Source of the DNA: a virus
Reading direction: 5' to 3' (one strand)
Length of the DNA stretch: 64,000 bases
Virus record (IMG/VR): IMGVR_UViG_3300045988_107814
Coordinates: 154,922-218,921 of that record
Positions 1,793-52,897 of the stretch are shown in pieces; position 1 is the stretch's first letter; every line of letters begins with the position of its first letter. A model generated the notes under the pieces. The model saw only the letters and a program-made list of their open reading frames with translations, had not been told where the DNA came from and ran no database searches. Position numbers and translations under genes: made by a program.

Positions 1793-4114
1793 TTAAACTT
1801 CACTAAGGTATGAAGACTCATTAAGTCTGAACTCATCAAGAGTAAGAATCTTAACTCCATACTTATTAGCTTTATCCACCTTTGATGAAGTATAACCAAC
1901 AAATGGAATCAACAAGAAGTCTGTTGTTTTTGTAACAGAACCTTCAGAACAATCATGACCTTGAATACTCAATCTGTTCTCAAGTTCCTTATCTCTTACA
2001 CCAGAGAATCTGATAGTCTTACATAAAGTTACCTTATCATTCTCTAGTCCTTTACTTGTAATAACATTTGGCATATTGTTACAAATATATACTAGATCTT
2101 TGATAAAGAACTGTCGCTCTTTGATAATAGTAGTGGCTGTTTTAGGACCGATACCCCTACCGCTATTCTCAAGTTTATAATATAATGACATATCACTATC
2201 TGTTGCAAGTTCATGCAATGACACTTTCTTCAAGATTAGTTTCCATTTCTTGTCTCCAATATCAGAGAAACCAAGAGAACCAAGCAGAATATAATCTGGT
2301 ACTTTAGAATCATATAAATGATCAATAGCCTTGATTAGATTTTCTGCATTTGTAGGACCAAGTGCCTTTGCTCTTTCTTCAGTCATTGACATAAGATCGT
2401 TAAATGATGTTAAATTAAGGGTCTTAATAGTTTCTTCAGAGAATCCTTTAAATCCTAATTTATTAACCATATTAACTACTCTTGCCCTTGTTCTACCTGG
2501 ACAACCAATATTACTACAGAATACACTTTTACTTGTATCTGATACAGATAACGGTTGACCACATTCTGGACAATTAGTAATAAATCCAAAAGGTTTCAAT
2601 GGATTGAAATCATTCTCAGGTACATTAGCTTTGTGGACATATGCCATTACATCATTAGTAAATTCAATTTCCAAGATATCATTAGGTCTTAGATTTAACT
2701 TCATGAATCTAGCATAACTATGACCAGAACTCTTTGTGTTGATCATACCATAAAACTCTACTGGATCATAATGAATCATCGGTGTTATATCGCCAGTAGC
2801 ACCAACAGTATAACTAATTCCTCTACAACGAGTAAGTTTCTTTTTGGTTTGAAACTTAATTGCAATAGAATACTCATTAATTGAATTAGATCTACCAAGA
2901 GTTTTTCTAATTTGAGGATCTAGATAAGATACAACTACTCCATCATACATAAATGGAAGAACATCTCTTACTGCTTGTGCTTCTTCTACGAATTTCTTTA
3001 CTAAGAATAATACCTTGTTATAATCTCCACGAACAACTGTATATCTACAAGGTTCACCAGTAGCATAATATTTGTTCATGAATTCAAGCTCTACATCTCT
3101 AGTCATATTATCATGACTTGTCTGCAATGGAACTAAAGTAATATACTTAGCATATTTTGAAGCCTTAGAATTACCAAGAATACCAATAATAGCATTTCTT
3201 GCATTTGCATACGTTTTACCACATTCTGCATTGAGCTGTCTGATAGCATTATACGAAATAACTGCTTCAAACTTCATACCAAATGGTTTAATATCAAATT
3301 TACCTACAGACTTAGTAAAGGTATATCCTTGAAGAATAGATGTCAGATCAGATGCTTTATCCATTTGGGTTTCACCTCTGGTTCTAGCACTTAATACTTT
3401 ATCTGTTACTTCAGCTTCGATACTAACACCATCATATTTAAGCTCTAACACAAGCTCAATATAGTTTGGATTTATGATTCCTGCTTGTACATGTTTTCTC
3501 AAGAAATCTCTTTCAAATACACGTACATTGGGGTCATTATAAACTCCACAATTAATAGCTTCGCTATCCAATACAAACTTAGCTTTGTGAAGTGTTCCAA
3601 CCAATTGAGGATACTTATGACTAGTATTTCTCAATCTCTTGGAAATAGTTTTATTCTCTTGAGAATCTACAAATTTAGATTGACCATAAGAATTACGTTT
3701 AGTAAGTTCATTACCGAATAAAAATCCATTTGTATTCATATAAGGTTGAAACTCAAACAATGATCCTTTAGGTTCTTCATCAACAAACTCTACATCAGAC
3801 GTAGAGAAGTTTGTTAATTCTACTGGTTCTGCACCTACTTGAAAATTTGGATTATATCTCTTATACTTTTCAAGAAGCATATCATAAACACCATCTTCAA
3901 GAACGAGAATACTTCTATCAGTGTTGTTATAGATAATATTAGAGATATGCAAGATATCATCTACAATACCTTGCTCAACTTCTGTCAGTGGTTCTTTGTT
4001 TAATAGATATACAATATAGCTATTAATATTAGCGATGACATCTTGTGTTAAACAAGATGCATCACCAGCTAACAGTTTTTCCACAATTGAATGCATAGGT
4101 GAAATGTTGTTCAT
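1793..4114 (-). CDS. ligA: NAD-dependent (LigA-type) DNA ligase
   Basis: Adenylation motif LELKYDGVSIE (KxDG). C4 zinc finger CPECGQPL...CSNIGCPG. HhH element GRGIGPKTA. BRCT-like C-terminus. Size and domain order as in bacterial LigA. ATGA overlap with the upstream gene. Confidence 0.88.
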   Translation of the reverse strand: MNNISPMHSIVEKLLAGDASCLTQDVIANINSYIVYLLNKEPLTEVEQGIVDDILHISNIIYNNTDRSILVLEDGVYDMLLEKYKRYNPNFQVGAEPVELTNFSTSDVEFVDEEPKGSLFEFQPYMNTNGFLFGNELTKRNSYGQSKFVDSQENKTISKRLRNTSHKYPQLVGTLHKAKFVLDSEAINCGVYNDPNVRVFERDFLRKHVQAGIINPNYIELVLELKYDGVSIEAEVTDKVLSARTRGETQMDKASDLTSILQGYTFTKSVGKFDIKPFGMKFEAVISYNAIRQLNAECGKTYANARNAIIGILGNSKASKYAKYITLVPLQTSHDNMTRDVELEFMNKYYATGEPCRYTVVRGDYNKVLFLVKKFVEEAQAVRDVLPFMYDGVVVSYLDPQIRKTLGRSNSINEYSIAIKFQTKKKLTRCRGISYTVGATGDITPMIHYDPVEFYGMINTKSSGHSYARFMKLNLRPNDILEIEFTNDVMAYVHKANVPENDFNPLKPFGFITNCPECGQPLSVSDTSKSVFCSNIGCPGRTRARVVNMVNKLGFKGFSEETIKTLNLTSFNDLMSMTEERAKALGPTNAENLIKAIDHLYDSKVPDYILLGSLGFSDIGDKKWKLILKKVSLHELATDSDMSLYYKLENSGRGIGPKTATTIIKERQFFIKDLVYICNNMPNVITSKGLENDKVTLCKTIRFSGVRDKELENRLSIQGHDCSEGSVTKTTDFLLIPFVGYTSSKVDKANKYGVKILTLDEFRLNESSYLSEV

Positions 4115-6360
4115 TTATTTTCATCTCCCATAAATTTAAACAATTGTCCTTGTACTTTGTTTACTGGGACGAACAAAGCGTCGATATCTGGATTGTTATC
4201 ATAAGGTACAAACAATTTAGATTGTGCCTCATTAACATCAGTAAACAGACCATTTGAATCCCAGCCAACAAAATAGAACAATGTGTCTTGTTGTTCTGTC
4301 GCAATGTCATTATACTTAATAGGAACTTTCTTAAATTCACAAGCAACACCCATGACTTTAAGAGTTGCATTAAGAATTTCTGCACTGCGAGACTTACCAT
4401 CCTCATCCAATACTACATTGAATTCATATGATTCAAGCATATTCTTACTACCTCTTCTTGCTTGAGGAGAAGTACTATAAATCATAAGAACTGTAACATT
4501 GACTTCAGGCCCCATAAGCATATAGATATTTTGCTCCATCTCACCATTTCTAATAGGTGTATTAGATGTAACACGCATAAACATCTTTGCTGCTTTTGAT
4601 TTAGAGTTTAGACCTCTTACATTGGTTGCAGACATAGAAGTAGCAGAATGTTTTTCTTCCGAATTCTGCTTCATTCTATATATATACTGCTTTGCAACAA
4701 TACTAGGTTTATTACTCTTTACCCATCTAGTATTTCCTCTAGAATCTTTGATAGGCACAATTGTAAATACAGGTTTGATCCATGGGAATGTATTATATAA
4801 TTCCACCAAAGTATCAAATGACACTGCATCTGAAATAGGTTCAAGAGGAATATATAATCCATCTGAATCTTCTGTTAAACAACTTACAACATTAAAACAA
4901 GCTTCTTGATCATTAATACTACTATCGATAGCATCCATAAAATATCTATCCCAATCATCTGATAAAATGCTAAAATACTCGTGCAATAATCCAACACACA
5001 TTTCAACATCAAATGACATAGTAGCCATATATCTGATGATATTCTCAGATATAAAGTTAAGCGATACCTCGTTCAACTGACCATTATTAAGTCGGTTTAC
5101 ACAAGTTGCCAAATTCCAAATGACATCAACAGGTTTACCTATATCTCCATCATCTACTCTTGGCATTTCGTTATCTTCTCTTACTTTTGAAATTACACCT
5201 TTACCGCCATATCTAGAAGTGATTTTATCACCTTCTTTTACAGGAAGACTTTCATATACAACCACTTCTACATAGATATTAGAGAATACATTGTCTTTAA
5301 AATACAATTTACCAGATAATACATCCTCACAAGTAGTATATAATTTGCTAAGTCTATGACTTTTCTTATACATAGAATTGTCAATATAATTCTTAAGAAG
5401 ATTACAAACTTCCGTACAAAATCTCTTGTTGTCCTTTACATAGAATTCTAATTGACCTTCATAGATTCCATTTGGAGTTTCTGAAATATCCTTATTACAA
5501 TACACATTGATATCAATTACTTTACCTTTAGCTTTGTAAGTAATATCATTAATCAATGTAGTCTTGAGTCTTTCTGCGGCTTGAGAGAAGAATATTTCAT
5601 CATTTCTTTCTGTTCTCACACCACAAACAATACCTTTCTTGATATCCTCACCAATGTCTGGAATGATCTTATAAATATTATCATCGCCATATAAGTTAAG
5701 AGGAATATCGTTATCGTTAATCAGAAATGCTATTTTCTTTATTTCTGGTCTTGATAATTTTTGAGATGCTGATCTAGAAATCTCAATAGCGTCTTCTGTA
5801 GTCTCTGCATCAGAAACATACATAACTCTAAGATTTCTACCAGCCATATAGTTATCAGCATCGTCAAATGATTTAGATTTCTTGACAGTTTTCCCTAAAG
5901 GGATAACATCATTGACATTCAAACTATCAAGATAGTCGTTGTTATACAAGAATCCATAAGATTCTGTATTATGACAATATGATACTCTTTCAATAACGTC
6001 CATATTATTATTCTCGTCTATTACAAACAGATAATAATGGTGTCCAGGACGATTAGAGAATTTTTCAATCTTCGCAATCACAGACCAAGCTCTGTCCGCT
6101 TTAATAAACGAAGATGAATGTTGTCCAAATAAGTTTTCGTATCCAGTACTGATATACGGTACTTCTGCATTTTCTAAGCAAACATGTTGCTGATAATGTT
6201 GAGAAAACATAGCTTTTCTTGATGCAGAGTTAGCGGCTTCAAACGGCATGTTCAAGCCTATACCCAACATTTTTTCCATGTTTCCATCATCATACTTTTC
6301 TGACGCTGCCATTATATGCTTATCAATATTGGCATCATCATATAACTTTTGATACTCCAT
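4111..6360 (-). CDS. multisubunit RNA polymerase beta subunit, C-terminal half fragment
   Basis: Colinear with the bacterial RpoB C-half. ANSASRKAMFSQHYQQ matches ANRALMGANMQRQ, GRNLRVMYV...EDAIEIS matches GQNMRVAFMPW...EDSILVS, GDKITSRYGGKGVISKV matches GDKMAGRHGNKGVISKI, and RNGEMEQNIY matches RFGEMEVWAL. Confidence 0.9.
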   Translation of the reverse strand: MEYQKLYDDANIDKHIMAASEKYDDGNMEKMLGIGLNMPFEAANSASRKAMFSQHYQQHVCLENAEVPYISTGYENLFGQHSSSFIKADRAWSVIAKIEKFSNRPGHHYYLFVIDENNNMDVIERVSYCHNTESYGFLYNNDYLDSLNVNDVIPLGKTVKKSKSFDDADNYMAGRNLRVMYVSDAETTEDAIEISRSASQKLSRPEIKKIAFLINDNDIPLNLYGDDNIYKIIPDIGEDIKKGIVCGVRTERNDEIFFSQAAERLKTTLINDITYKAKGKVIDINVYCNKDISETPNGIYEGQLEFYVKDNKRFCTEVCNLLKNYIDNSMYKKSHRLSKLYTTCEDVLSGKLYFKDNVFSNIYVEVVVYESLPVKEGDKITSRYGGKGVISKVREDNEMPRVDDGDIGKPVDVIWNLATCVNRLNNGQLNEVSLNFISENIIRYMATMSFDVEMCVGLLHEYFSILSDDWDRYFMDAIDSSINDQEACFNVVSCLTEDSDGLYIPLEPISDAVSFDTLVELYNTFPWIKPVFTIVPIKDSRGNTRWVKSNKPSIVAKQYIYRMKQNSEEKHSATSMSATNVRGLNSKSKAAKMFMRVTSNTPIRNGEMEQNIYMLMGPEVNVTVLMIYSTSPQARRGSKNMLESYEFNVVLDEDGKSRSAEILNATLKVMGVACEFKKVPIKYNDIATEQQDTLFYFVGWDSNGLFTDVNEAQSKLFVPYDNNPDIDALFVPVNKVQGQLFKFMGDENK

Positions 6361-7875: not shown

Positions 7876-7891
7876 ATTTACTTATATGTTA
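7876..7891 (-). promoter_or_regulatory. copy of 16-nt motif TAAC(A/T)N5GTAAA(T/G)
   Basis: Minus strand reads TAACATATAAGTAAAT, 15 nt after the tubulin stop codon. Confidence 0.4.
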
Positions 7892-7905: not shown

Positions 7906-9195
7906 TTAAAAACCGTTCATATCATCTTCAGAATAAGGTTTCTTTTCATCAGACTTCTTTGCTGTGAAACCTTTTTTCTTTTCATAACCACCAGAGACAC
8001 CAGATGTATTGACACGGTTTGTTCTAGATGTAGATGATCTTCTTCTACCAGAACCAGAAGATGTTTCTCCTTCGAAATTAGCAAAGAAATCATTTGTATC
8101 ATCATCTTCAGATTTTTCTTCTTCATGATGTGTTTCTGTTACCATATTAGAAATAGAATCGAAGAAGTCATCCTGCTTTTCAATCTCTTTTCTATTCTGG
8201 TACTTAGTATAGATATCATTAAGTTCATCCTTAGGAAGATTGATACCAGATGCAATAATTCTTACATATTCAGGAAGATCAGATTCACACTGACGATGAA
8301 TAAAGAACTCCTCAATATCTGTATTACCACAAAGCTTCTTTTTAATAGAAGTAAAGTTAGTATCTACAACATCTAGATTATCATCAGAGATATTCATATA
8401 TACACCGATCTTTGTAGCAGATGGTTCGAAATCGAGAGAAGTATTATAGTCAATTGCATCAGATACGATCTGTTCAAACTGAGAAGAATTCTTTAATCTC
8501 TTATCGATATTAACTTCTGTTACAAACATCATACCTGGATTAGTGATTAACTTATAATGGTCTTCATCATCAATATTCTGCTCAGAGTCTACAACATCAT
8601 AAGCACTAATAATCTTAAATGCTTTAGAGATATCATCATTAGCCATCTTTTCAGCAGTAAATGTATTATTAGTTTTATCAAGATACTTCTTATTGGATAC
8701 AGTTCTGATTACAAAATCTCCACCATTAAGATCCTTGAAATATTCAATAGTATTCTGTAATCCTCTTGTATCAGTTTCAAATCCAGTAATCAATGTAATA
8801 ATTACTGGAACTCTCAAATGTTTAGGAATAGCAGTCTTGATAAACTTAGCAAGAATAACGGATGCACCACTACCAGAAGCACCTTCTGTTGTAGCAATGA
8901 TATTTACATATTGATATTTACCTTCAGGAAGTAGGCTAGGAATAGAATTAGGATTCTCTCTAAGATAGTCTAACATAAGACTTTTAGCATATCCTCTATC
9001 CTTACCGCAGCCAGCATTAGGATCTGGATTAATAATAATAGTATTAATATTATTATTACGATATTCATAAGGAATATCTTTCTGTGTGGAGTTTACAATA
9101 CAACAGTCATCAATCTTCAATGTACCTTCTTCAATACAATGAATCATAGCTTTTGTTGCACCTTGACCACAAGCAAAAGTATAAGAGTTGTTCAT
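7906..9195 (-). CDS. FtsZ/tubulin-superfamily GTPase (PhuZ/TubZ/FtsZ-like)
   Basis: Blocks colinear with FtsZ: FACGQGATKAM (T1 GGGGxN region), GCGKDRGYAK (GLGAGANP region), ATTEGASGSGASVILAKF (tubulin signature GGGTGTG), VPVIITLITGFETDTRG and NIDDEDHYKLI (NLDFADV). Low-complexity C-terminal linker ending in SEDDMNGF. Confidence 0.87.
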   Translation of the reverse strand: MNNSYTFACGQGATKAMIHCIEEGTLKIDDCCIVNSTQKDIPYEYRNNNINTIIINPDPNAGCGKDRGYAKSLMLDYLRENPNSIPSLLPEGKYQYVNIIATTEGASGSGASVILAKFIKTAIPKHLRVPVIITLITGFETDTRGLQNTIEYFKDLNGGDFVIRTVSNKKYLDKTNNTFTAEKMANDDISKAFKIISAYDVVDSEQNIDDEDHYKLITNPGMMFVTEVNIDKRLKNSSQFEQIVSDAIDYNTSLDFEPSATKIGVYMNISDDNLDVVDTNFTSIKKKLCGNTDIEEFFIHRQCESDLPEYVRIIASGINLPKDELNDIYTKYQNRKEIEKQDDFFDSISNMVTETHHEEEKSEDDDTNDFFANFEGETSSGSGRRRSSTSRTNRVNTSGVSGGYEKKKGFTAKKSDEKKPYSEDDMNGF

Positions 9196-9395: not shown

Positions 9396-9427
9396 ATATC
9401 CGTATGTGATTTAACACATACGGATAT
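9396..9427 (-). terminator. 13-bp hairpin in the region upstream of the small ORF/tubulin operon
   Basis: ATATCCGTATGTG atttaa CACATACGGATAT; only a weak T tract (TTACTG) follows on the minus strand. Confidence 0.45.
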
Positions 9428-9477: not shown

Positions 9478-9493
9478 ATTTACTTATATGTTA
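9478..9493 (-). promoter_or_regulatory. copy of 16-nt motif TAAC(A/T)N5GTAAA(T/G)
   Basis: Minus strand reads TAACATATAAGTAAAT, 8 nt after the stop of gene 9501-10220. Confidence 0.4.
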
Positions 9494-9500
9494 ATACTTT

Positions 9501-10220
9501 TTATTTTTCTATTCTCTTCTTTTTCATACTTAATGTGTAAGGAGTCATATAATCCTCTTCTAATAAGTTAGTCATAATACCAGATCCAATCAAATAAACA
9601 TCAACTGTGTTTCTTGCAACTTGATTAGATTTATCAGATGTAAGATCTTTTAAAGATACTTGACCAGTTGCATTAATTTGGTTATACATCTTATTCTTAG
9701 CTTCCATATCATCTGCTTTAGCACGAGTAAACTCTTTTATTGTAGCATCCATATTCTGTAATACAAGAGACTCTAGTTCTCTATCGGATTCAACACCTTT
9801 AGAGTTACCTACAATAGCACCAGTCTTCGGGTTTCTAACAGTAATATCTGTATTATATCCAGATTTCTTAGTAACTAACTGTTTAAGTTTTTTAAGATTG
9901 AGATATCCAATCATAGCTTCGTTATTAGAGTTTACAGCAACTCCATCACTATTAGTATAAATACTTGGAAGTTTAATTTTCTCTAGTACTGGTACATTAA
10001 TAGCTTTAAGAGCATTAATACATTTAGTAGGATTAAGTTCTCTATCAAATGCAGTAGTCTGTAATCTGAAAGGTAATCTTCTTTTACAGAATTCCATAAA
10101 TTGATTGTCAGACATTTTAGAAAACATTTCTTTATAGAAGTTAGAATTAGCTTTTGTAGGGTCCATTGCATCAAAAAATTTATATATAAGTGCTTCAGCC
10201 TTTTTTCTTTGTGCTGTCAT
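9501..10220 (-). CDS. free-standing RNA polymerase beta-subunit C-terminal fragment homolog (degenerate)
   Basis: Colinear with the last ~210 aa of bacterial RpoB. [24 protein letters not shown] matches [41 protein letters not shown] matches [16 protein letters not shown], and [15 protein letters not shown] matches [15 protein letters not shown]. C-terminal [10 protein letters not shown] matches GINIELEDE. GEME is replaced by DRELE. Own SD (AAAGGAGGG) and own flanking terminator. Confidence 0.7.
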   Translation of the reverse strand: [239 protein letters not shown]

Positions 10221-10271
10221 TCTATTACCCTCCTTTGAGTATATTATAAATATGTTTTAGAATACAAAAAA

Positions 10272-10302
10272 GAAGGATAAAGAGATCAACCCTTTATCCT
10301 TC
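10272..10302 (-). terminator. rho-independent terminator after gene 10325-11185
   Basis: GAAGGATAAAG / CTTTATCCTTC stem followed on the minus strand by TTTTTTG. Confidence 0.75.
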
Positions 10303-10324
10303 CGCACAAGCTACAGTTAGAGTT

Positions 10325-11185
10325 TTATTCTTCTACTGCGGCAAGACAAATTGATGTGATTTCATAATTAGCGTTATATGACACATTATAATACGCCGTC
10401 TTACCAGTTCCGTGCAACAAATTCGATATATCCATAATCCAATTATAAACAGCAATTTTATTATAATCGTTTTTAGTACGATTAATCATTACTTTATCAT
10501 AAGTCTTATTAGGATTAATAAGTCTATTATCCAACATTACTCCTACAATTTTTTCAAGATCTGTATTAAATTGTGTCAGGCTGTTGTTAAGACTTGTAAT
10601 ATTATCGTTGATTGTAGCATCTTCAATATCTTTATTTATTTTGACATTTGGTTCATTCATATTAAAATTACGATTTTCTATCTCTTTCAACAAGTCCATA
10701 GTAGGAACGTTTTTAATTGTAATACTATGATTAAACGTTATCGATAAAGATTCGGTAATATCTAAAACATTATCATCTGTTTCATATTCTCCATAATTAT
10801 GATCTGTAAAATATTCAATTACTTGATTAAACGAATCATCAATATGTTGAATAAGTTCGTTTACCCCAAATTCAGCATCTTTGATAGATACATTAAACAG
10901 AGGAATATTTTCAATTGTGTCTGTTTCATTATCGAAATAAGGCTGTTCAGTTTCAAGCTTATTGAATGAAACTTCGCAAGTTACGTTATCTTTGAATCGA
11001 TTAATATAATCAATAATTTCAGTGAAATCTTTAACAAATTTGCTGTTTTCTAATACGTTTTTAATATACTCTGTGTATGATGATACATCACACTTATCGA
11101 GAATTCCCACTTTATCAAAGACCGATTGACTCGGACCATAGCAAAGTGTAAAATACAGGTTTACATTTCTTTTTAAAGTTTTCAT
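10325..11185 (-). CDS. hypothetical protein (Asn/Asp-rich)
   Basis: 286-aa ORF, AAGGAG SD upstream of ATG 11185. Confidence 0.75.
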   Translation of the reverse strand: MKTLKRNVNLYFTLCYGPSQSVFDKVGILDKCDVSSYTEYIKNVLENSKFVKDFTEIIDYINRFKDNVTCEVSFNKLETEQPYFDNETDTIENIPLFNVSIKDAEFGVNELIQHIDDSFNQVIEYFTDHNYGEYETDDNVLDITESLSITFNHSITIKNVPTMDLLKEIENRNFNMNEPNVKINKDIEDATINDNITSLNNSLTQFNTDLEKIVGVMLDNRLINPNKTYDKVMINRTKNDYNKIAVYNWIMDISNLLHGTGKTAYYNVSYNANYEITSICLAAVEE

Positions 11186-11276
11186 AATTTTAAACTCCTT
11201 TTAAATAAAATTATTTTGTATACACATAAATTATATATAAATGTAATACATATTGAATTTGTAAAACTTTATATTA

Positions 11277-11436
11277 TTATCTATATATAATTATAGTGAA
11301 TAGAGATAGACATTAGAGACTATCTTGTGAGAAGCTATTCGGTCTGGATGCTCGGAGACCTTAAACTGAGCAAGGACGAACATAAACTTTGGATCTTTAT
11401 TATGATCCGCGATGTATAAAAATGGAGGAATTCATC
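11277..11436 (+). promoter_or_regulatory. class-A conserved promoter box plus ~135-nt structured 5' leader, copy 1
   Basis: Near-identical to 38270-38428. Starts TATCTATATATAATTATAGTGAATAGAGATAG and ends AAAATGGAGGAATTCATCATG. Conserved helices at 11304-09/11320-25, 11341-45/11356-60 (alternative 11349-53/11368-72) and 11391-95/11404-08. Confidence 0.6.
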
Positions 11437-11937
11437 ATGAAAAAGAATATCAAGTTAACTGTATCTGCAACTGTAAGCAAGGCTATTCGTACATTGTTAA
11501 CAAACGAAGAATTGGACTGGGAAACCAGATACCGCATCGAAAAATTCATTGAAAGGAGGATTGTAAAGGAAGACGGCTATATAGAATTGATTGAGATCAA
11601 TTCTAAAATTTATGGCAAGAATATTCTTGCCGTAAAAGATGGAAGATATGATGACCAGGATTTTGATCCTGGTCATTACGAGTATAGATATGTATATACG
11701 TATTTTCTGTATATTAATAAGGAAGGAAAATTGAAGGCAAGAGCCTTTTATACCTTCCGCAAATATAGGGATTTATATTCAGCAGAAGTACAAAGATATC
11801 CTATCAATGAAATATCAATCTTTAACATCGCAGAAATGGAATTGGAATTAGACCATGATCAAACCATAGAAGAAAAAGAAGAAATAGACTATGAGTTCAA
11901 TAATGAATATCGTAAATATTTAGGCTGCGAAGACTAA
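11437..11937 (+). CDS. hypothetical protein
   Basis: ORF 11389-11937. Start moved to ATG 11437 (MKKNIKL...), 8 nt after GGAGG. The upstream in-frame TTG lies inside the conserved leader. Confidence 0.7.
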   Translation: MKKNIKLTVSATVSKAIRTLLTNEELDWETRYRIEKFIERRIVKEDGYIELIEINSKIYGKNILAVKDGRYDDQDFDPGHYEYRYVYTYFLYINKEGKLKARAFYTFRKYRDLYSAEVQRYPINEISIFNIAEMELELDHDQTIEEKEEIDYEFNNEYRKYLGCED

Positions 11938-17721: not shown

Positions 17722-18255
17722 TCAATCAAGATTAGTCCACTTCGGGCAAGGAGAACTTACCTTAAGACCTTCATGTGCAGGAATTGTAGTTTCGTTCTTC
17801 TCATAACGAGGAGATCCATCTTCATTAACACCTGTCTTCATTGGGAACTTCTTCTGGGTCTCTGGAATTTCCTTAAGCTGAATAGAAATATCGGACTTCT
17901 CAGTAGCACCGAGATTAATCTTTCTACCTGTTCTCAAAGCACTATTAACAAAGTCCTTAGAAAGAGTTACCATTGTAGATGCATCAGACTTCTTTACCTC
18001 ATAACTATCTACAATACTACAAGCTTCTACCTTAGGCATCTTTGTCGTAGATGCAATGATACCAGCAACCATTTCTCTATATTCAGTTGCAGGACAATGA
18101 GTTTCTTGAGATGACCAATCCTTTACAACAAAGTTTCTGTCATTAAGCATTGCACGCATAACAGCTTCTTCATCACGTCTAGATGCAGATTTCTGTTTCA
18201 AATTTTCTCTGATGTCATTGATTAGCTCCTGTACACTTACGTTGTTGTTTTCCAT
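17722..18255 (-). CDS. hypothetical protein
   Basis: ORF 17722-18330. Start moved to ATG 18255 (MENNNVSVQ...), preceded by AAGGAGGAAAATAAA. Confidence 0.7.
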   Translation of the reverse strand: MENNNVSVQELINDIRENLKQKSASRRDEEAVMRAMLNDRNFVVKDWSSQETHCPATEYREMVAGIIASTTKMPKVEACSIVDSYEVKKSDASTMVTLSKDFVNSALRTGRKINLGATEKSDISIQLKEIPETQKKFPMKTGVNEDGSPRYEKNETTIPAHEGLKVSSPCPKWTNLD

Positions 18256-18317
18256 TTTATTTTCCTCCTTAATGGAATTTAATTTATTATTAAACGTTTT
18301 CATTTGAAAACGAATAA

Positions 18318-18922: not shown

Positions 18923-19036
18923 TTTTATTACCTCCATCATTCATTTATAGATATGTTTAAGAGGTAGTAAAAACATACGCAATGCGTTCATTAATCAACA
19001 TTAAAATAAAAGAATGAAATTAAAGGAGGTCGTTTT

Positions 19037-19909: not shown

Positions 19910-19985
19910 TGGTTGGGATAGCTGGATTTGAACCAGCGGAATGACGGAGTCAAAGTCCGTTGCCTTACCACTTGGCTATATCCCA
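19910..19985 (-). tRNA. tRNA-Gln (anticodon UUG)
   Basis: Cloverleaf on the minus strand. Acceptor TGGGATA/TATCCCA, D arm GCC-AAGTGGTAA-GGC, anticodon stem ACGGA/TCCGT with loop CTTTGAC, and T arm GCTGG-TTCAAAT-CCAGC. Discriminator A and encoded CCA. Very close to bacterial tRNA-Gln. Variable region appears to be 6 nt. Confidence 0.85.
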
Positions 19986-38255: not shown

Positions 38256-38269
38256 CTTTATTTTATATT

Positions 38270-38428
38270 TTATCTATATATAATTATAGTGAATAGAGAT
38301 AGATATTAGACTATCCTTTGAGAAGCTATTCAGTCTGGATGCTCGGAGACCTTAAACTGAGCAATAGAAGAACATAAACTTTGGATCTATTACTATGATC
38401 CCTGATGAAGAAAATGGAGGAATTCATA
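38270..38428 (+). promoter_or_regulatory. class-A conserved promoter box plus structured 5' leader, copy 2
   Basis: See 11277-11436. Same start and end sequences, same helices, different loops. Confidence 0.6.
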
Positions 38429-39211
38429 ATGATTAACAATATTACTGTAAAGTACGTAGACTCCGTAACTAAGGTTACTATAAAGAAAGAGATTAATTTC
38501 AGAGATCTTTTCGGAAAAGAGGATATTTCAAAGATTTCTAAGTATGGAATTATTCTCGCTACCGTTAACTTTGAAAAGAACTGTAAGACAATTAGGCGTA
38601 GAGCATTTTTTAGAGGTGGATTGAATAAGGATTTGATGTACTATATCCTGACTGCTTCTGAAAATAGTATTTTGATTAAATTTAGTGAAAAGTTTGAAAT
38701 TAATCTGATGAAATATTCCAACATCGATTTCATGGATGAAATGTTAAGCTACTGGGATGTTAATGATGAACAAGAACTCGTTAACTATTATCGAGAAACT
38801 TTGCCTGTATTTGAATATAAGAGAACTTTTGCTGAAGTCTTGGCTACTCTCGTATCTTATTCAGATTATTGGGATAATCTTCAGTATTGTCTTAAGTATA
38901 ATGATATTGAAGATACTGAAATTAAAATTAGTAAATCGTATTTTAAGAAGCAGGGTGATAATTTATATACGATAACATGTTGTTACAAAAACGAAAATTA
39001 TGAAGGGTATATGACTGTCGTTGTACAAGAATGTAAAGCAATTAAAATGCTTTTTAATAATTATAATAGTGGTGCTATTATTATTGATAATCATGAAATT
39101 GGAATAGTTAATGAAAATCCTTGTCCGGATCCCATTGGTCAAGGACAGAACCTCTTGACTGTTTTGATTTTGGCCATGTTTTTGTCTAACGATGGTGTTT
39201 GGTGGAAGTAA
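38429..39211 (+). CDS. hypothetical protein
   Basis: ORF 38405-39211. Start moved to ATG 38429 (MINNITVKY...), 8 nt after the conserved GGAGG. Confidence 0.7.
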   Translation: MINNITVKYVDSVTKVTIKKEINFRDLFGKEDISKISKYGIILATVNFEKNCKTIRRRAFFRGGLNKDLMYYILTASENSILIKFSEKFEINLMKYSNIDFMDEMLSYWDVNDEQELVNYYRETLPVFEYKRTFAEVLATLVSYSDYWDNLQYCLKYNDIEDTEIKISKSYFKKQGDNLYTITCCYKNENYEGYMTVVVQECKAIKMLFNNYNSGAIIIDNHEIGIVNENPCPDPIGQGQNLLTVLILAMFLSNDGVWWK

Positions 39212-39318: not shown

Positions 39319-40254
39319 ATGCCTAAAACGTATAATAATACATTTATTTATAGCAAATTTCCATACGAAGAAAACATATTTAGATTCCTTATCAATGCTA
39401 ATCGTATTGATAAAGACACTGATAAGTTTGAAGATATTAAGTATGAATTCAAAAAGAGACAGATCGATAATAGTCTCTTGAAAGTTCTTATGTCTAAGAA
39501 CGTTATTCTTTGCTTATCTGAATCTATGCCCTTGAATACACAATTTAGAGTTATTTGTGCAAGGGATCCTAAATTTAAATCTAATACAGATTATAAGATT
39601 TTTATCGACTGTACTGGTCTTATTACGTTAGATAAGAGTGGTAATTATAAATGCCGTAGTATTGATATCTTAGTTTCTCATATCGTAAATGCTATGGTAA
39701 CAATGATTTATCATAAAGCCGAGAATCAGATTCTTTCTACACAATTGATTTCTGATACAATGGAAGCTTTTGCTAATCTATTTACTCATGTAATTGATTA
39801 TCTAGCAAAGATTTCTGTAATTCCTTCTTCTAAATCTAAATGTCAGTTCTTGGCTTGTATGTACTTTACTGAGAATATTATCCAGAAAGATTTCAATAAT
39901 AACTTTCAACATATTGCCGGTAAGATTACTAATCTTTCTGAAAGAGAACAAGAAATGATAATGACTCAGTGTGATGAAGAAGATTTTGATAATATCAAGT
40001 CTTTTGTTTCTAAACTTGCTACACTTATTAAAGTACCTGGAATTAAAGTAGATAATGTATTAGATAAATGGATGTATCTATACGGCTCTAATACAGTATT
40101 CTCTCTTGAATATTATCCAGCACTATCTGCAATGTTAACAGATGCATATTGCGGTGCATATATTAACAATCAGAAAACTATCGAAAAGGTGGTAGGAAAT
40201 ACTTTAGTAAGTTATACTAAGAATGTTATTGCTAAAGGTGGGACGTTAGTATGA
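39319..40254 (+). CDS. hypothetical protein (first gene of the putative tail/structural operon)
   Basis: ORF 39295-40254. Start moved to ATG 39319 (MPKTYNN...) after AAAGGAGG. ATGA-type overlap with the next gene. Confidence 0.7.
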   Translation: MPKTYNNTFIYSKFPYEENIFRFLINANRIDKDTDKFEDIKYEFKKRQIDNSLLKVLMSKNVILCLSESMPLNTQFRVICARDPKFKSNTDYKIFIDCTGLITLDKSGNYKCRSIDILVSHIVNAMVTMIYHKAENQILSTQLISDTMEAFANLFTHVIDYLAKISVIPSSKSKCQFLACMYFTENIIQKDFNNNFQHIAGKITNLSEREQEMIMTQCDEEDFDNIKSFVSKLATLIKVPGIKVDNVLDKWMYLYGSNTVFSLEYYPALSAMLTDAYCGAYINNQKTIEKVVGNTLVSYTKNVIAKGGTLV

Positions 40255-43200
40255 GTAAATATATGGAAGATATACAAGGTAAGATTGTATCTAATCCAAT
40301 TAATGAAACTAATACTAAATATCCATATATTGAGAAAGAAAATAATATACGCCCTGGCGACAAATATTCTATAGATACTCAATATATGTATAATGATAAC
40401 GAACCAGTGAGTGATATTGATACAACTTACTATGCTGATTATAGAAATAAGATTGAAGAACTTAGAAAGAGAACAGAAAGTACTTATGAAGCTCTTGAAT
40501 CTTGTTTAGTTCCAGTAGAAATTCCTGGAATGTCTTTTCAACCGTTTGAATATGTACAGACTGAATTAGATAGCGGAGAAGTTGTTGAAGAAAGAGTTAA
40601 GTCATTTACTTATTTTTTTCAAGATCATTTATCTCCTATCGGTATTCAATCTGATACTGGAGAAGGTTCTATTCAAGAATTTGTTTTTAGAACAAATAAA
40701 GTTAAGTTTATTGATGACAGACATAGACGTCTTATTTATGATAGAACTATTCATCTTATGAGTCTAAAAGAAGATGAAGACAATAATGTAACATTTAGAG
40801 AAATGATTAGAAATACATTTACTGAATATAGTGATAAATATAAAACATACTATTCATTGATCAAAGATACAAATGCTGTAACTATAAACTATAGTGATAT
40901 TATCAGCAATATTTTGTCTAGCATTGCTGATGGAACAGATAGTTATACTGTAATTGATAATAATGGCAAAGAAAAGAAAGTTAAATCTGATGCTGATTTT
41001 GATTATCCATTATTAAGTGGTCAAGATATAGATACATTTGTTCCAAGTACATTGTATAATCTATATAATCTTGGTTGGGTAAATGCAGCTATGATTTACT
41101 TAAATGGATTATCTATAGAATGGACAAAAATTCTTATATCTGTAGATAATATAGATACGTTTATCATTATAACAAATCTACCTAAATCTGGGCTTGATTT
41201 GATTGACGATAGTAAAGAGATATATTTAGATTATATTCACATTCCATTTAAAGTACAATATATCATCGGTTCTGTATATAATAATAAAAATCCATATTAT
41301 GATAAGTATGTAACAAATGGTAATATCAATAAACCAATTATATTTGTTATTGATAAGACATCTTTATCTATGAGATTTACTCATATAGATTCTGATCTTT
41401 ATAGATATAATACAGGATATAATTTTGACAAGATAATATGTGTAGATGACAATATAAAGTTTATGGAATTTACTTTATATGATAGTGAAGATAGTGATCA
41501 TCTTATTGATGCTGGTATTAATTACACAAAGTCATTTAAGCAATTTTGTGATAATGATTATAGATGTAAATTAAAACAGTTTAATTTTTTAGGATTTGAG
41601 TTAAATAGATATGATGACTCTAATAAAAACGGAACTTTAAAGAATGATGACTTTACAATAACTTGGCATCCATTTAATATTATGGATGTTAGATTTAAGC
41701 GTCTATTTAATAGATCAAGAGTATTTAAAGTGTTCTATAATACAAAAGTATTATACGATCAAGATAATATCTTGAGAATTAAAAATCATGATAGAATTTC
41801 TGATGAATATGAGAAATATAGAAAAGACGTAACTGCTAATATTGAAACTTATTTAAATGAAATTTATATTCTAGCTAAGAAAGATATTGGTACTTATATA
41901 GCTAATAATGGTGTTATGTATGGTTATAAATATCATTATGTAACTCCATATGAATGTCTATTATTATATAATGCTATAAGTGAAGTTAACGGTGATAATA
42001 AAGTTTCATTTGATGATTTCAGAAATATAAATGTATCTGGAATAAAGATGGATCCAAATAAGTTTAAATCTGTAATGAATCCTAAATTAGTTGCTAATAA
42101 AGATGGTAAATGTGTTTGGACTATTCCTGTAAGTGAAACTATAAAAGAATGTCCAGCTGTTAAAATAGTTGATATGACTACAGGTGATATTGTATTGGCC
42201 GATATTGATTATATCCAAGATACAAATGAAATAGCTATTACTATGTATAAAGATGGTAATAATATTCCTGAAAATACTTATAAAGTTACTATATATTATG
42301 CAGATATTATTAAAGGTAATCCAGCATTTGCAAAATCAAATACAGGCATATATATTTGGTATGAAACTATTGTTGGTAATGTAAAAGCTGTAGCTGTATA
42401 TGAAACAAAAACAAATCAAGTTGTATTAGCTGATGTTGAATCTTACCCTAGAGTAGATGGTAAACGCACTAGAATAAAAGTTACTCTTCATACAACAGAA
42501 GAAATTCCAGCAGATAAATATAAGCTTGTAATCAATATTAATAAAGTCGATGAACATAGTTTCTTAAATTATATTAATGGTGGATTTATAGCTGTTCCTA
42601 AAGATGAAGATAGTATATTTGCAGAAAAGATTAATGAAAAAGATATCTATACTGGTGGCGTATTAAATTCTAATATTAGAGAGTACTTTAATAATATTAT
42701 GAAATTAACTGGAGCTACTTTACCAGATATTTTAATTCCTATAGATGATGAAAGACGAGATGATCTAACTCAACCTAATGATATATTCTATAATTATGAG
42801 GGTGATAATAAAGGTAAGATTGTTCCTTATACACCAATAGCAAATGAATTTAATCTAACTCAAGAATATGATGATGTACAGTATGATAAGTTAAAGATTA
42901 GATTTGAATTAGCATATCTTAATAATATGGAAGAAGGAGCTACTCCAGTAGATGAATTCATATATTATTTCGATAATGATAATGTAGCAAATCTAGATAA
43001 ATATCCAGTTACGAATAGTTACGTTGATCGTCAGACAGCAAATATTTTAAATGCTATTGCAAAGAATATTTTCAAATACGATCCTAAATTAGTAGCTAAT
43101 TCTATTTATAAAATGAATTATGCTGCTGATTATATTATTCCTAAATCTCTAGGAAGCATGTCTAGAGAAGATTGTATTGTTACATCAAATGAACAATATC

Positions 43201-44843
43201 CTGTACACTATGATTATAGATATGACCCTAAGTTTTATTATAATTATGGATATCGTACAGAAGATAATAAACCACATAGATTACAATCTGAATGGGGTTT
43301 AAGAAGAAATCTTCCAGAAATGTTCTATTGGAGTCTTGATGAAAAAGAATATACAATAGATAGTATGCATTTACTAGATGAAGTGTTTAATTTTACTTAT
43401 GACTTTAATAAGACATATGAAGAGAATTTAAAAGAAGGATTAAATTATGTTATCGGTTATGACGCTGATAAAGTAGAACAATCTATAAAACGTAGCATTG
43501 TTTCTATTACAAGAACTGGTGCTGAATTAAAGAAGATTCAAGCTAGTCATCCTTATGTAAGAATTACATCTTTAAATAAGAATAAGGTAATGACATTTAT
43601 AAAGAATAAGAATAGAAAGATTTTGTTTGATAATATAAAATTCATTGTAACTCTTAATAGTAGTTATGGTGATATTGTTGATATAAATACATTTCAATAT
43701 ATAGATGAGAAGGGTATTAAAAGATTTGTATCCAAAACGGCTAATATTAATATGAAGTATGGAGATCAGGTAAATCCTACCATTACAAAAGCTTCTGGAG
43801 TATATGCATTTAAAGATGTAGATAAGAACTTTACTCAGGTATATGATAAAGTAAAATACAATAGAATAACAGAAATGATTGAATTGTATTATAATAATGA
43901 ACTCGTTATAACAACTCAAGTTGATGAAGTGCACGATAATTCGAAGATTGAGCTTTCTAGATGGAATATTAGCAAACAAGAAAACTACGTAATGATCTTT
44001 AAGAATAGAGAGCTTTATGATAGATATCATAGTATTGAATATACAGATATATCATTCATAGTGGATTTTAATAAAGATCAGATTGTAGATACAGATGAAT
44101 TTGAATTTGTATTTTTCTTAAATGCTAATAATACTATTATGAAAAAACTTTGTGAGACTAATGATGATTTAAAATTAAGTGTACCATCTGGTTATTTTTC
44201 TAATTCTGTTAATAAGATAAGAACTGATAATTATGGTAATTTAATGGATAAAGGTCTATACGAAGGATTAACTGGAACTGTTGATTTAGATTGTGCTATT
44301 GCATGTGATACAAGTATTATTGATGCTGAAAATGTTCAATTACTTGTAAATACAATGCCTGTTAATAAAGATGATAAATGGACGGTTGACAATGTTGATA
44401 ATACAGCGTATGAATTATCATATAAAATGAAATCATACAAAGCCGAAACCTCTATGGCTTATAATAATGAAAAGTTTATTATGCATTTAGAAGATGATAA
44501 TAAATTAAATGGTCTTCATCGAGTTACAAAACAAGGTGGAGGAGAATATTTCTTATTATTTGATGGTACTGTTCCTAAAAATGATGGTACTACTGATGGT
44601 GGTGTACATGTTAAACCTGGTGGCGGAGGAACAAGTGGTATTACCGGTATTGGTCTAATGGCATTTGCTACTCAAAATGTACGTTCTATTGAATTTAATG
44701 GTACTATGGAAGGATGGAATAAAATTTCTAAAACCTTACCTTGGATTAGAGATGCTACTAATCTTAATAATGGTGGTGGTATTAAATGTACTGATGGTAA
44801 TATAAAAGTTAAACCTGAAGAAACTCAAAATGGTAGTGTATAA
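40251..44843 (+). CDS. giant virion-associated protein (1530 aa), presumed tail/baseplate component
   Basis: Uninterrupted 4.6-kb ORF with an SD. No catalytic motif recognised. The Gly-rich C-terminus followed by ...AFATQNVRSIEFNGTMEGWNKI resembles the end of BspA-type LRR modules. The operon continues into an LRR protein. Confidence 0.6.
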   Translation: MSKYMEDIQGKIVSNPINETNTKYPYIEKENNIRPGDKYSIDTQYMYNDNEPVSDIDTTYYADYRNKIEELRKRTESTYEALESCLVPVEIPGMSFQPFEYVQTELDSGEVVEERVKSFTYFFQDHLSPIGIQSDTGEGSIQEFVFRTNKVKFIDDRHRRLIYDRTIHLMSLKEDEDNNVTFREMIRNTFTEYSDKYKTYYSLIKDTNAVTINYSDIISNILSSIADGTDSYTVIDNNGKEKKVKSDADFDYPLLSGQDIDTFVPSTLYNLYNLGWVNAAMIYLNGLSIEWTKILISVDNIDTFIIITNLPKSGLDLIDDSKEIYLDYIHIPFKVQYIIGSVYNNKNPYYDKYVTNGNINKPIIFVIDKTSLSMRFTHIDSDLYRYNTGYNFDKIICVDDNIKFMEFTLYDSEDSDHLIDAGINYTKSFKQFCDNDYRCKLKQFNFLGFELNRYDDSNKNGTLKNDDFTITWHPFNIMDVRFKRLFNRSRVFKVFYNTKVLYDQDNILRIKNHDRISDEYEKYRKDVTANIETYLNEIYILAKKDIGTYIANNGVMYGYKYHYVTPYECLLLYNAISEVNGDNKVSFDDFRNINVSGIKMDPNKFKSVMNPKLVANKDGKCVWTIPVSETIKECPAVKIVDMTTGDIVLADIDYIQDTNEIAITMYKDGNNIPENTYKVTIYYADIIKGNPAFAKSNTGIYIWYETIVGNVKAVAVYETKTNQVVLADVESYPRVDGKRTRIKVTLHTTEEIPADKYKLVININKVDEHSFLNYINGGFIAVPKDEDSIFAEKINEKDIYTGGVLNSNIREYFNNIMKLTGATLPDILIPIDDERRDDLTQPNDIFYNYEGDNKGKIVPYTPIANEFNLTQEYDDVQYDKLKIRFELAYLNNMEEGATPVDEFIYYFDNDNVANLDKYPVTNSYVDRQTANILNAIAKNIFKYDPKLVANSIYKMNYAADYIIPKSLGSMSREDCIVTSNEQYPVHYDYRYDPKFYYNYGYRTEDNKPHRLQSEWGLRRNLPEMFYWSLDEKEYTIDSMHLLDEVFNFTYDFNKTYEENLKEGLNYVIGYDADKVEQSIKRSIVSITRTGAELKKIQASHPYVRITSLNKNKVMTFIKNKNRKILFDNIKFIVTLNSSYGDIVDINTFQYIDEKGIKRFVSKTANINMKYGDQVNPTITKASGVYAFKDVDKNFTQVYDKVKYNRITEMIELYYNNELVITTQVDEVHDNSKIELSRWNISKQENYVMIFKNRELYDRYHSIEYTDISFIVDFNKDQIVDTDEFEFVFFLNANNTIMKKLCETNDDLKLSVPSGYFSNSVNKIRTDNYGNLMDKGLYEGLTGTVDLDCAIACDTSIIDAENVQLLVNTMPVNKDDKWTVDNVDNTAYELSYKMKSYKAETSMAYNNEKFIMHLEDDNKLNGLHRVTKQGGGEYFLLFDGTVPKNDGTTDGGVHVKPGGGGTSGITGIGLMAFATQNVRSIEFNGTMEGWNKISKTLPWIRDATNLNNGGGIKCTDGNIKVKPEETQNGSV

Positions 44844-50863: not shown

Positions 50864-51574
50864 TTAATAATATAATTCTTTAATAAATCTTGAATCATTA
50901 TCAAAGTTATATACAAATAGTGGATTCAGATTATAAAATTTCCATCCTCCACCAGTTGTACTCTGCTCTCCTCTAAGACAATCTGAAATACGTTTGGAAT
51001 CTAGATTATGTCTTGCAGCAAATTGTAATTGATTGTTAGTGAGATATAATTGACCATTAGGTGCTTCTGCTATAAACTCTCTAACAGTTGTAGAATTTCT
51101 TGTTTGTTGTATTGGTGTACCCCAAGATATATTTCCATCTACATACCCTAGATTATTATTTACTCTATCAATAGATAATTTTACACCAGGATATCTAGCT
51201 TTCATTTGTACATATTGAGCATAACAAGCATCAAAAAAATCTACTGGATATTCGTAATCAGTTGTAAGACCTCGTCCACCGTATCTATGATATTCTTTAT
51301 CATTTGGATTATTGATTCTACTTTTTAAATGCATAAATGTATCATAAAATGTAGGATCTAAAGATTTAATATCACGACTACAAGCTATTCCATGTTTTGA
51401 AGCATTTGGATTATTTCTTAAGTCATATTCACTTATTTCTTTAATTCTGTTACATTTAATACATCTAGTAGAAAAATACTTTCTATGTGCTTTTACGTTT
51501 CTATAAGATCTCATTAAAAACATATCTCCAACTATATCTCCAGGTTGAAGATAATTTGTACTGTTTTCGTTCAT
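50864..51574 (-). CDS. free-standing homing-endonuclease-like protein (degenerate HNH_3-type core plus C-terminal DNA-binding module)
   Basis: YGGRGL...SIDRVNNNLGYVDGNISWGTPIQQTRN matches the phage YGGRGI...lDRIDndgnYepgNCRWat..eQ.nN pattern. C-terminal ...LTNNQLQFAARHNLDSKRISDCLRGEQSTTGGGWKF is like the DNA-binding tails of Seg/Tev-type endonucleases. Confidence 0.55.
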   Translation of the reverse strand: MNENSTNYLQPGDIVGDMFLMRSYRNVKAHRKYFSTRCIKCNRIKEISEYDLRNNPNASKHGIACSRDIKSLDPTFYDTFMHLKSRINNPNDKEYHRYGGRGLTTDYEYPVDFFDACYAQYVQMKARYPGVKLSIDRVNNNLGYVDGNISWGTPIQQTRNSTTVREFIAEAPNGQLYLTNNQLQFAARHNLDSKRISDCLRGEQSTTGGGWKFYNLNPLFVYNFDNDSRFIKELYY

Positions 51575-51682: not shown

Positions 51683-52897
51683 TTATTCACCGAATGCTTC
51701 CATAGCGTCCATCTGAGTAAATTTTTCTGTACTGTCGTGGAATGATTTCATCATGATATTCTTTACTGCACTGGCTAATTGAGGTGTGGCGGTGCCAATG
51801 TTAGGAGTGTCTAATAGATAGTATAGGTCACCAGCACACTTATTACAAATGCATTCATTCTTACATAAGCTACTGAAACGCATTTTTACTTTCTTACCTC
51901 TATATTTATCTATGTTTGTACTATCAAGACGTACTAATTTATTTCCTTCTACTATATAAGAATACATTAACATCTTTAAATAGTTCTTATCTAAGGTTAC
52001 TGTAATTGTTCGTTTAGTACCACAGTCACTACCTTTTGGTCCTAACTTAACATGCTGGAAAGCTAATAAGAATTTCTTTTCTTCATATCCCCATACAGCA
52101 GTTTTTCTAGCACGGGCATATGGACCTGCTGCTAGTGAGTTTGCCATAGCAGCATAATCATCTTTAGATACACCTTCAGAATAGCAAGATTTAATTATGT
52201 TATATCCTTTTGTAGGATCTGGATCTTTCTGTGCACCTTTAACAACATACATGTTTTTAAAGTTATTACCTAAGTCAGCACCTGCACCAGCTTTAATATT
52301 ATCCCAAGCAGGATCATCTTTTAGTTTATCTTCACAATAAGCCAGTAATTCATTCTCTATCTTTTGCATTGTAAAAGCGTCACCAGCTGCTAGTTCTTTT
52401 TCATATTTCTTAAATAATTCTTTCTTCTTCGGTTCTATTGTTTTTGAAATTAGTAGCATATCTTCAGAAGATGTAGTACAAATTACTGTAGAGTAGTTCA
52501 TAAATTTCTGACAACAAAGAATCCAATCTTTAAACTGCTTAGTAGTGACTCTATCTTCTAGAATAGCTAATGATAATTTGTCATTAATATCACCATATAC
52601 CCCTTTGTTTACTGGTTTATTAATATAACCAATTTCATCAAAGATACCTGGATAATCAATGCATGCTTTATTAAAGAACCAAGCACCAACAGTAGTAACG
52701 AATTCATTTTTGTTATTATGATATGTCTTTGGTGGTACTTTCATAACATCATAAGTGTTGAATTTTTTCTTTCCATTAAATTCACCGAAACATTCCATGA
52801 ATACACTTGTCTTTAAACAGTCTTTACTAGAAAGGGATAGGATATAATCTCTTTCTGAATCTGTAATATATCTAGCTTTTCTTTTCTTAATAGCCAA
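51683..52897 (-). CDS. multisubunit RNA polymerase beta' subunit, middle fragment (up to the first arm of the trigger loop)
   Basis: [10 protein letters not shown] matches [21 protein letters not shown] matches SGARGSAAQI, and the bridge-helix region [19 protein letters not shown] matches [32 protein letters not shown]...CNKCAGDL matches VKVRSVVSC...CAHCYGRDL. Ends at MMKSFHDS, matching LTMRTFHIGG. TTG start 7 nt after GGAGG. Confidence 0.8.
   Translation of the reverse strand: [404 protein letters not shown]

Follow-up and report, generated by a model that had tools for sequence, protein, structure and literature searches.

A stand-alone RpoB-tail open reading frame as the probable C-terminal beta subunit of a jumbo-phage virion RNA polymerase

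Why would a phage carry a short gene resembling the very end of the bacterial RNA polymerase (RNAP) beta subunit, when a longer gene a few kilobases away already contains this region? The question is raised by an open reading frame (ORF) of 239 amino acids (aa) at positions 9501–10220, minus strand, of a 64,000-nt stretch of the IMG/VR virus record IMGVR_UViG_3300045988_107814 (positions 154,922 to 218,921 of that record), which as a whole is called the window here. A sequence-only reading had described the ORF as a degenerate copy of the beta C-terminus and offered two explanations, a component of a second phage RNAP that is split more finely or a captured rpoB 3′ fragment acting as a decoy or adaptor. 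The former turned out to be essentially right: we are highly confident that the ORF encodes the C-terminal beta subunit (C-beta) of the virion-packaged multisubunit RNAP (vRNAP) of phiKZ/AR9-like jumbo phages, that is, the C-terminal beta polypeptide of this enzyme. The identification draws here on family membership, homology to the RpoB C-terminus, complementarity with the N-terminal beta fragment (N-beta) in close relatives, synteny and purifying selection. By analogy with the homologs, the protein of the window phage would be packaged into virions, assembled into the vRNAP, essential and expressed at a corresponding time. In the source collections C-beta is called “hypothetical protein” where it is named, and most entries are without any name.

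The ORF is real and runs from ATG to TAA on the minus strand. A profile (A1) built from the alignment of 14 family members was searched against all PDB sequences, and its top 21 matches were all bacterial RNAP beta chains, the best with E=1.9e-5. Against E. coli beta (E=8e-5), residues 1164–1309 were colinear with profile positions 36–184. BLASTP of C-beta itself against E. coli RpoB aligned residues 104–182 with 1227–1308 (E=6e-4), with about 28% identity over 85 aa, and colinear blocks surround FSDEE... and KSDDV..R.KMYKNI. The proposed colinearity with the extreme C-terminus of RpoB thus has statistical support, from the profile (E=1.9e-5 to 8e-5) as well as from the pairwise search. In bacteria, the colinear region (E. 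coli beta 1164–1342) is the end of a beta chain of 1,100–1,400 aa, whereas C-beta is a separate polypeptide.

The alignment also agrees with the motif changes reported from the letters alone. HARSTG (E. coli 1244–1249) corresponds to GYNTDI (C-beta 121–126) and is not conserved, its position being variable across the C-beta family. GEME corresponds to RELE (C-beta 147–150), in which both glutamates are retained. E. coli H1237 is replaced by glutamine (Q114), and K1242 is kept as K119. Furthermore, C-beta is nearer to bacterial beta than to the longer beta-like protein of the window, a 749-aa product encoded at 4111–6360 (minus strand), as had been suspected: profile A1 scored E. coli RpoB with 25.4 bits and the 749-aa protein with −0.1 bits, and BLASTP between the two window proteins yielded nothing (E of at least 5.6).

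C-beta matched phrog_3233, annotated as “RNA polymerase beta subunit”, with E=4e-38, residues 1–220 aligning with positions 1–223 of the 225 in the profile. When 50,697 phage records were searched by tblastn, the matches fell only into jumbo phages, with 95 records in total and a query coverage of at least 80% in 81 of them. Their hosts are both Gram-negative and Gram-positive and include Erwinia, Salmonella, Pseudomonas, Bacillus, Staphylococcus, Vibrio, Yersinia and others; the homologs are labelled “virion structural protein” or “RNA polymerase beta subunit”. Among the orthologs were SPN3US_0218, PhiPA3 gp172, 201phi2-1 gp233, phiR1-37 g203 and the gp078-like proteins of Goe21 and SA1. At 37.7% identity, the best match came from Bacillus phage Goe21, whose counterpart of AR9 gp078 is 516 aa long and aligned through its C-terminal 225 aa.

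For several members of this family a role in the vRNAP has been established. SPN3US gp218 is the “C-terminal subunit of the vRNAP beta” and is essential, and an amber mutant in its gene yields particles devoid of all five vRNAP subunits (PMC5694885). In phiKZ, Gp149 co-immunoprecipitates with Gp180, Gp178 and Gp80 (PMC10612078), and the vRNAP subunits of this phage are GP178, GP149, GP180, GP80 and GP176 (PMC12809450). The annotations of PhiPA3 gp172 and 201phi2-1 gp233 name phiKZ gp149 as similar, and mass spectrometry identified gp233 in virions. The vRNAP beta of AR9 consists of gp189 and gp078 (PMC5312081), and AR9_g078 is annotated as [quoted passage not shown]. More generally, the vRNAP core is composed of N-beta, C-beta and three beta′ pieces, and its beta is split at sites that differ from those in the non-virion RNAP (nvRNAP) (PMC7598289). 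An arrangement that had seemed unfamiliar is therefore already documented, for phiKZ gp149, SPN3US gp218, AR9 gp078 and 201phi2-1 gp233.

SPN3US gp218, phiKZ gp149, 201phi2-1 gp233 and PhiPA3 gp172 are, like the window C-beta, stand-alone proteins of about 220–240 aa. These phiKZ-like orthologs align with it over their full length, at just 24–26% identity, and occupy the same place in the split beta, starting after the PSRMN-like block. PhiPA3 also has a UvsX-like gene near C-beta, as in the window. The window lineage differs by a slightly longer C-terminal tail and by its host clade, the window belonging to an uncultured phage with about 30% G+C from human-microbiome metagenomes. The closest cultured relatives are AR9/PBS1 gp078, Goe21_00920 and the “AR9_g078” of Staphylococcus phage SA1, with 30–38% identity over the RNAP module. 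In these proteins an N-terminal HD phosphohydrolase is fused to C-beta, whereas the window ORF starts at the RNAP module and has no HD domain; the HD fusion has been described for Bacillus phages (PMC7598289). Since, by its annotation, the RNAP domain of the AR9 protein occurs alone in virions after proteolysis, the mature AR9 product resembles the stand-alone protein of the window. A further difference is that AR9 g078 contains introns, its coding sequence being joined from 3 pieces, whereas the C-beta gene of the window is uninterrupted.

The complementary beta fragment was sought as well. The last exon of AR9 gp189, the N-beta of this phage, ends with ...GDKITYYTALKTIVS...SPLSIVSRMTVDIYNALYLNKALVHLKREIGKIYSE, shortly past the counterpart of the bacterial GDKxAGRHGNKG...PSRMN stretch, and in gp189 and all metagenomic N-beta homologs the C-terminus lies 25–45 residues past the S-x-x-RM block. 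An N-beta profile (A4) aligns to bacterial beta, including “...GDKLAGRHGNKGVISKILP...PLGVPSRM”, up to GDKLAGRHGNKG...PSRM, and its match on E. coli beta covers residues 1005–1108. As the N-beta match ends at E. coli residue 1108 and C-beta starts at 1164, the two proteins are contiguous along beta. Two lysines never vary in N-beta, that of the GDK motif (E. coli K1065) and a second one (K1073). No vRNAP chain was found among the PDB matches of profile A1 or of profile A4.

In nine IMG/VR relatives, whose C-beta is 73–92% identical to that of the window, N-beta is located on the same contig as C-beta. Five of these contigs (N-beta/C-beta loci L158/L020, L160/L018, L159/L023, L161/L024 and L164/L026) carry a C-beta with 85–92% identity and an N-beta of about 1,712–1,744 codons; on the four others the C-beta identity is 73–75%. 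The latter four were recovered with a broader N-beta alignment (A3), and the five nearest with A4, in which the sequences of A3 were re-ordered to place the closest N-beta first. On the L158/L020 contig, N-beta is located 19.4 kb downstream of C-beta on the same strand, and on the L138/L027 contig it is found about 18 kb downstream. The L158 N-beta product ends with ...FSVGDKLIFLGAQKGVAK...SFDKRMCCAP..., also given as ...FSVGDKLIFLGAQKGVAKEV...SFDKRMCCAPLQY.... Other searches were negative: a scan with an earlier N-beta alignment (A2) and two single-protein scans found no contigs shared with C-beta, a hand-made degenerate DNA pattern for N-beta hit four loci, none of them on contigs with the C-beta of this lineage, and an exact 42-mer of the window had no match in IMG/VR. 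Three large genes in or near the window were considered as N-beta and dismissed, namely the ORFs of 1,530 aa (40251–44843) and 1,573 aa (56568–61289), which are not RNAP, and a 1,408-aa gene just right of the window, which encodes a structural-type protein.

In jumbo phages of this kind, the beta chain of the vRNAP is split late, with a large N-beta reaching through the second double-psi beta-barrel. In the window lineage this N-beta is a protein of about 1,700 aa that keeps the GDK...K lysines and the PSRMN-like block, and a small protein of about 220–240 aa supplies the remaining conserved C-terminal beta regions, equivalent to E. coli residues ~1164–1342. In bacterial RNAP, these regions line the active-site/hybrid pocket (around H1237 and K1242) and build the beta portion of the clamp, which holds the beta′ N-terminus. 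We infer that C-beta performs the job of the bacterial beta tail in trans, docking on N-beta and the beta′ pieces and so completing the catalytic core. If the window phage resembles its studied relatives, the complex would be made late in infection (PMC5312081) and assembled before packaging (PMC5694885); loaded in the capsid and ejected together with the DNA, it would then transcribe the early genes independently of the host polymerase (PMC7598289).

Several results weigh against this identification. Pfam found no RNAP domain in the single C-beta sequence (RNA_pol_Rpb2_7 and Rpb2_6 remained silent), with only a sub-threshold hit to DUF772; as phmmer with the single protein against the PDB likewise returned noise and no RNAP, the family profile was needed. 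Of the four blocks on which the sequence-only reading had based its RpoB match, three lie inside the significant alignments, but the terminal GINIELEDE-like block is covered by none and is colinear yet unverified. An AlphaFold2 model of isolated C-beta, computed from an alignment of 23 sequences, was poor, with a mean predicted local distance difference test score (pLDDT) of 62.6; only residues 1–100 were well predicted, and pLDDT was below 50 for much of residues 106–239. A protein that acquires its fold on partner subunits would be expected to yield such a poor model. The top four Foldseek matches of this model in the PDB were bacterial beta chains, none of them significant (E=0.14–0.55), a ranking that is consistent with beta identity without being evidence for it. 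As for the partner, tblastn with N-beta proteins detected no vRNAP N-beta in the window, so that the claim that no neighbouring gene supplies a GRHGNKG-type block holds within the window, and N-beta was not found within 10 kb to the right of it or about 6.5 kb to the left. With the N-beta of this genome outside the sequence that could be reached, the argument from complementarity relies on relatives whose C-beta is at most 92% identical. The start of N-beta is projected about 10 kb past the left end of the window, which fits its absence from the reached sequence. Finally, packaging, assembly and expression are predicted for the window phage from its homologs.

How these points affect the balance is best seen by comparison with other explanations. 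Capture of a host rpoB 3′ fragment, whose product would bind the beta′ clamp of either the host or the phage polymerase and so serve as decoy or adaptor, would be in keeping with a family profile nearer to bacterial beta than to the phage nvRNAP beta (25.4 vs −0.1 bits), and a non-catalytic binder could tolerate the replacement of HARSTG and the change of H1237 to glutamine. However, C-beta is only 28% identical to E. coli beta over 85 aa, the profile matches point to no particular bacterial donor, and the family is conserved in jumbo phages of all the host genera named above, which fits ancient vertical inheritance together with the rest of the vRNAP and not a recent capture. K119 and E148, the first glutamate of GEME, hardly vary or do not vary at all in the wide family, and the same applies to the N-beta lysines; the gene is under strong purifying selection, and homologs are vRNAP subunits by experiment (co-immunoprecipitation of phiKZ Gp149, knock-out of SPN3US gp218). 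N-beta, moreover, stops exactly where C-beta starts and co-occurs with it on the same contigs of relatives, and a middle beta′ piece of the vRNAP is present in the window itself. The decoy idea is thus unsupported, and we consider a captured fragment very improbable.

An equally improbable alternative is that the protein belongs to the non-virion or to a third polymerase, as an additional or alternative subunit, instead of to the virion enzyme. Its gene is located about 3 kb from that of the nvRNAP C-beta, and its virion association in the window phage is predicted from orthologs. These orthologs are virion proteins, though, and only two RNAP sets have been described for these jumbo phages (PMC7598289). 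The 749-aa nvRNAP C-beta, as had been noted before, already has the equivalent region, including GEME, and its AR9 and phiKZ homologs sit in solved nvRNAP complexes composed of four beta/beta′ pieces plus gp226 or gp68. Least likely of all, and hardly to be entertained, is a decaying, functionless remnant of a duplicated beta 3′ end. Such a pseudogene might show altered canonical motifs (HARSTG to GYNTDI) and be missed by the Pfam RNAP models, as is the case here. Yet the dN/dS ratio (nonsynonymous to synonymous substitution rate) of C-beta against nine relatives is 0.05–0.09 at a dS of at least 1.0, dozens of metagenomic relatives keep the ORF intact and at constant length, and it is preceded by a strong Shine-Dalgarno (SD) sequence. 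The gene is under strong purifying selection, and calling it degenerate was misleading. Alignment A1 contains 10 invariant columns (N25, F33, M36, D38, F41, Q114, K119, G134, K141 and G186). Among these, Q114 (the H1237 position), K119 (K1242), G134 and K141 do not change anywhere in the family between phiKZ-like and AR9-like phages, and E148 is nearly invariant. D146, E148 and E150 are invariant in the window lineage, to which the invariance of E150 is limited. The C-terminal beta subunit of the vRNAP accordingly remains by far the preferred identity of the 239-aa protein.

Both polymerase sets, virion and non-virion, are visibly present in the window. The vRNAP is additionally represented by a 404-aa middle beta′ at 51683..52897 (minus strand), a homolog of AR9 gp264 that matched phrog_2962 with E=2e-62 and, by tblastn, AR9_g264 (“virion RNAP subunit”) with 34% identity over 98% of the query. 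An ORF for an HNH endonuclease (50864–51574, minus strand) lies directly downstream of this gene; AR9 has homing endonucleases and introns inside or beside RNAP genes. The nvRNAP, which consists of four beta/beta′ pieces and a specificity subunit, gp226 or gp68 (PMC7598289; PMC12809450), is represented by an N-beta′ with Rpb1 domain 2 at 53510–55084 (plus strand), a homolog of AR9 gp270 and phiR1-37 g274, and by the 749-aa protein. The latter, a homolog of AR9 gp089, had its best PDB match in 7s00_C of the AR9 nvRNAP (E=1.3e-70), followed by 7ogp_C of phiKZ, and its sequence identifies it as the beta C-half of the separate non-virion polymerase.

This nvRNAP C-beta (AR9 gp089, PDB 7S00 chain C; phiKZ, PDB 7OGP chain C; PHROG 3295) is thus also a C-terminal part of beta encoded a few kilobases away, but its split point is unlike that of the vRNAP C-beta, as it holds the GRHGNKG-like SRYGGKGV and GEME in a single chain. 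Because the nvRNAP is split elsewhere, the 749-aa protein itself contains the region equivalent to C-beta. The two proteins are also told apart by database searches: C-beta had no match to phrog_3295 and none to 7s00_C or 7ogp_C at E<=10, whereas its 749-aa neighbour matches. On the minus strand, from 10220 to 1793, the gene order is C-beta, a tubulin-like gene, a UvsX-like recombinase, the 749-aa beta C-half and an NAD-dependent ligase. Apart from the tubulin, this is the order of g078, g086 (UvsX), g089 (nvRNAP C-beta) and g095 (NAD ligase) in AR9. The tubulin/FtsZ-like ORF between C-beta and UvsX (429 aa, 7906–9195, minus strand) matched Pfam Tubulin with E=7.6e-5, below the curated cut-off, and had no PHROG match; it may encode a PhuZ-type phage tubulin.

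Regarding expression signals, the SD and terminators attributed to the gene were borne out for the SD and in part for the terminators. The SD AAGGAGGG is located at 10228..10235 (minus strand), with a 7-nt spacer to the C-beta ATG; its GGAGG core (10233–10229) lies 8 nt from the ATG. On the 5′ side, the terminator scan called a strong intrinsic-terminator-like hairpin with a T-run at 10271..10303 (minus strand), a 14-bp stem followed by TTTTTGTATT, which would end the upstream 286-aa ORF and is predicted to isolate the C-beta gene as its own transcription unit. On the 3′ side of the C-beta stop codon, a hairpin ATCCGTATGTG-ttaaat-CACATACGGAT can be read from the sequence at approximately 9398..9425 (minus strand). 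It lacks a T-run and was not called by the scan, but is possibly a weak terminator or an RNA end.

More speculatively, AACATATTTATAATAT at 10241..10256 (minus strand), 21–36 nt 5′ of the C-beta ATG, is a candidate phage promoter. Motifs of the form AACATAT(N3)TA occur in intergenic regions on the minus strand at 10241–10256, 9481–9492, 7879–7890 and 18946–18957, and the genes just 3′ of them are, in this order, C-beta, the small ORF that precedes the tubulin gene, UvsX and one with its start near 18920. These motifs are similar to the late-promoter form of AR9, AACA-N6-TA (PMC7598289). Nevertheless, the short AACA-N6-TA-type pattern is not enriched in the window (74 observed vs 88 expected), and we reject it as evidence of late C-beta expression. 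Separately, two copies of a leader or intergenic element of about 180 nt, ~88% identical to each other, are located upstream of plus-strand genes at 11268–11450 and 38262–38442 (plus strand). Each begins with an AT-rich core, TATCTATATATAATTATAGTG, followed by a G+C-richer stretch (GAGAAGCTATTCAGTCTGGATGCTCGGAGACC...); the element had no match in Rfam and could combine an early (vRNAP-type) promoter with a conserved 5′ leader RNA.

Immediately 5′ of C-beta, the 286-aa ORF (10325–11185, minus strand) had no Pfam or PHROG match. It is strain-variable, since close relatives lack it and have a divergently oriented ORF of 149–153 aa at that spot. We considered whether it is a split-off HD domain, as in AR9 gp078, but rejected this: close relatives lack the ORF, and BLASTP against the HD domain of the Goe21 gp078-like protein gave no more than a marginal E=0.001, probably by chance. 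In more distant relatives (L013, L015 and L017), a gene for ~175 aa adjoins both the vRNAP N-beta and a giant CHAP/lysozyme protein of about 4,000 aa. Its window homolog (17737–18270, minus strand; 44–46% identity) is not beside N-beta, pointing to a rearrangement of this region between the lineages. The window also contains a single tRNA gene, for tRNA-Gln (anticodon TTG), at 19910–19985 (minus strand).

The window has a G+C content of about 30%. Its first 20.2 kb are 100% identical to NODE_9_length_192550 of ENA ERZ1034170, and its proteins recur on scaffolds with Human Microbiome Project names (SRS045645; HMPC12-1 scaffold_19, 218,931 bp). It originates from an uncultured jumbo phage of human-associated samples.

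An apparent anomaly is thereby cleared: what looked like an isolated RpoB tail is the expected C-terminal beta piece of the vRNAP that defines phiKZ/AR9-like jumbo phages. As this kind of gene and its arrangement are already well known, and the window gene is a member from an uncultured phage, the finding carries little weight as a discovery. Together with the other RNAP pieces, the tubulin and UvsX, C-beta marks a two-polymerase jumbo phage of about 190–220 kb in human-microbiome samples. Where a short “RpoB tail” ORF is met in such phages, an N-beta of about 1,400–1,750 aa should be looked for elsewhere in the genome. A point of some interest is what the replacement of H1237 and the loss of HARSTG mean for catalysis by the vRNAP. 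With several canonical residues near the active site altered, by an invariant glutamine at the H1237 position, the loss of HARSTG and the reduction of the GRHGNKG of N-beta to a conserved lysine, one may speculate that the catalytic or nucleoside triphosphate-entry pocket really differs and that C-beta acts as a control point, a proposal we regard as rather doubtful. In that case C-beta might prevent activity of the enzyme after its late synthesis, or permit its unfolding for ejection, until reassembly takes place in the next host. The family-wide H1237Q change and HARSTG loss, now seen in dozens of new sequences, could help in work on a vRNAP structure.

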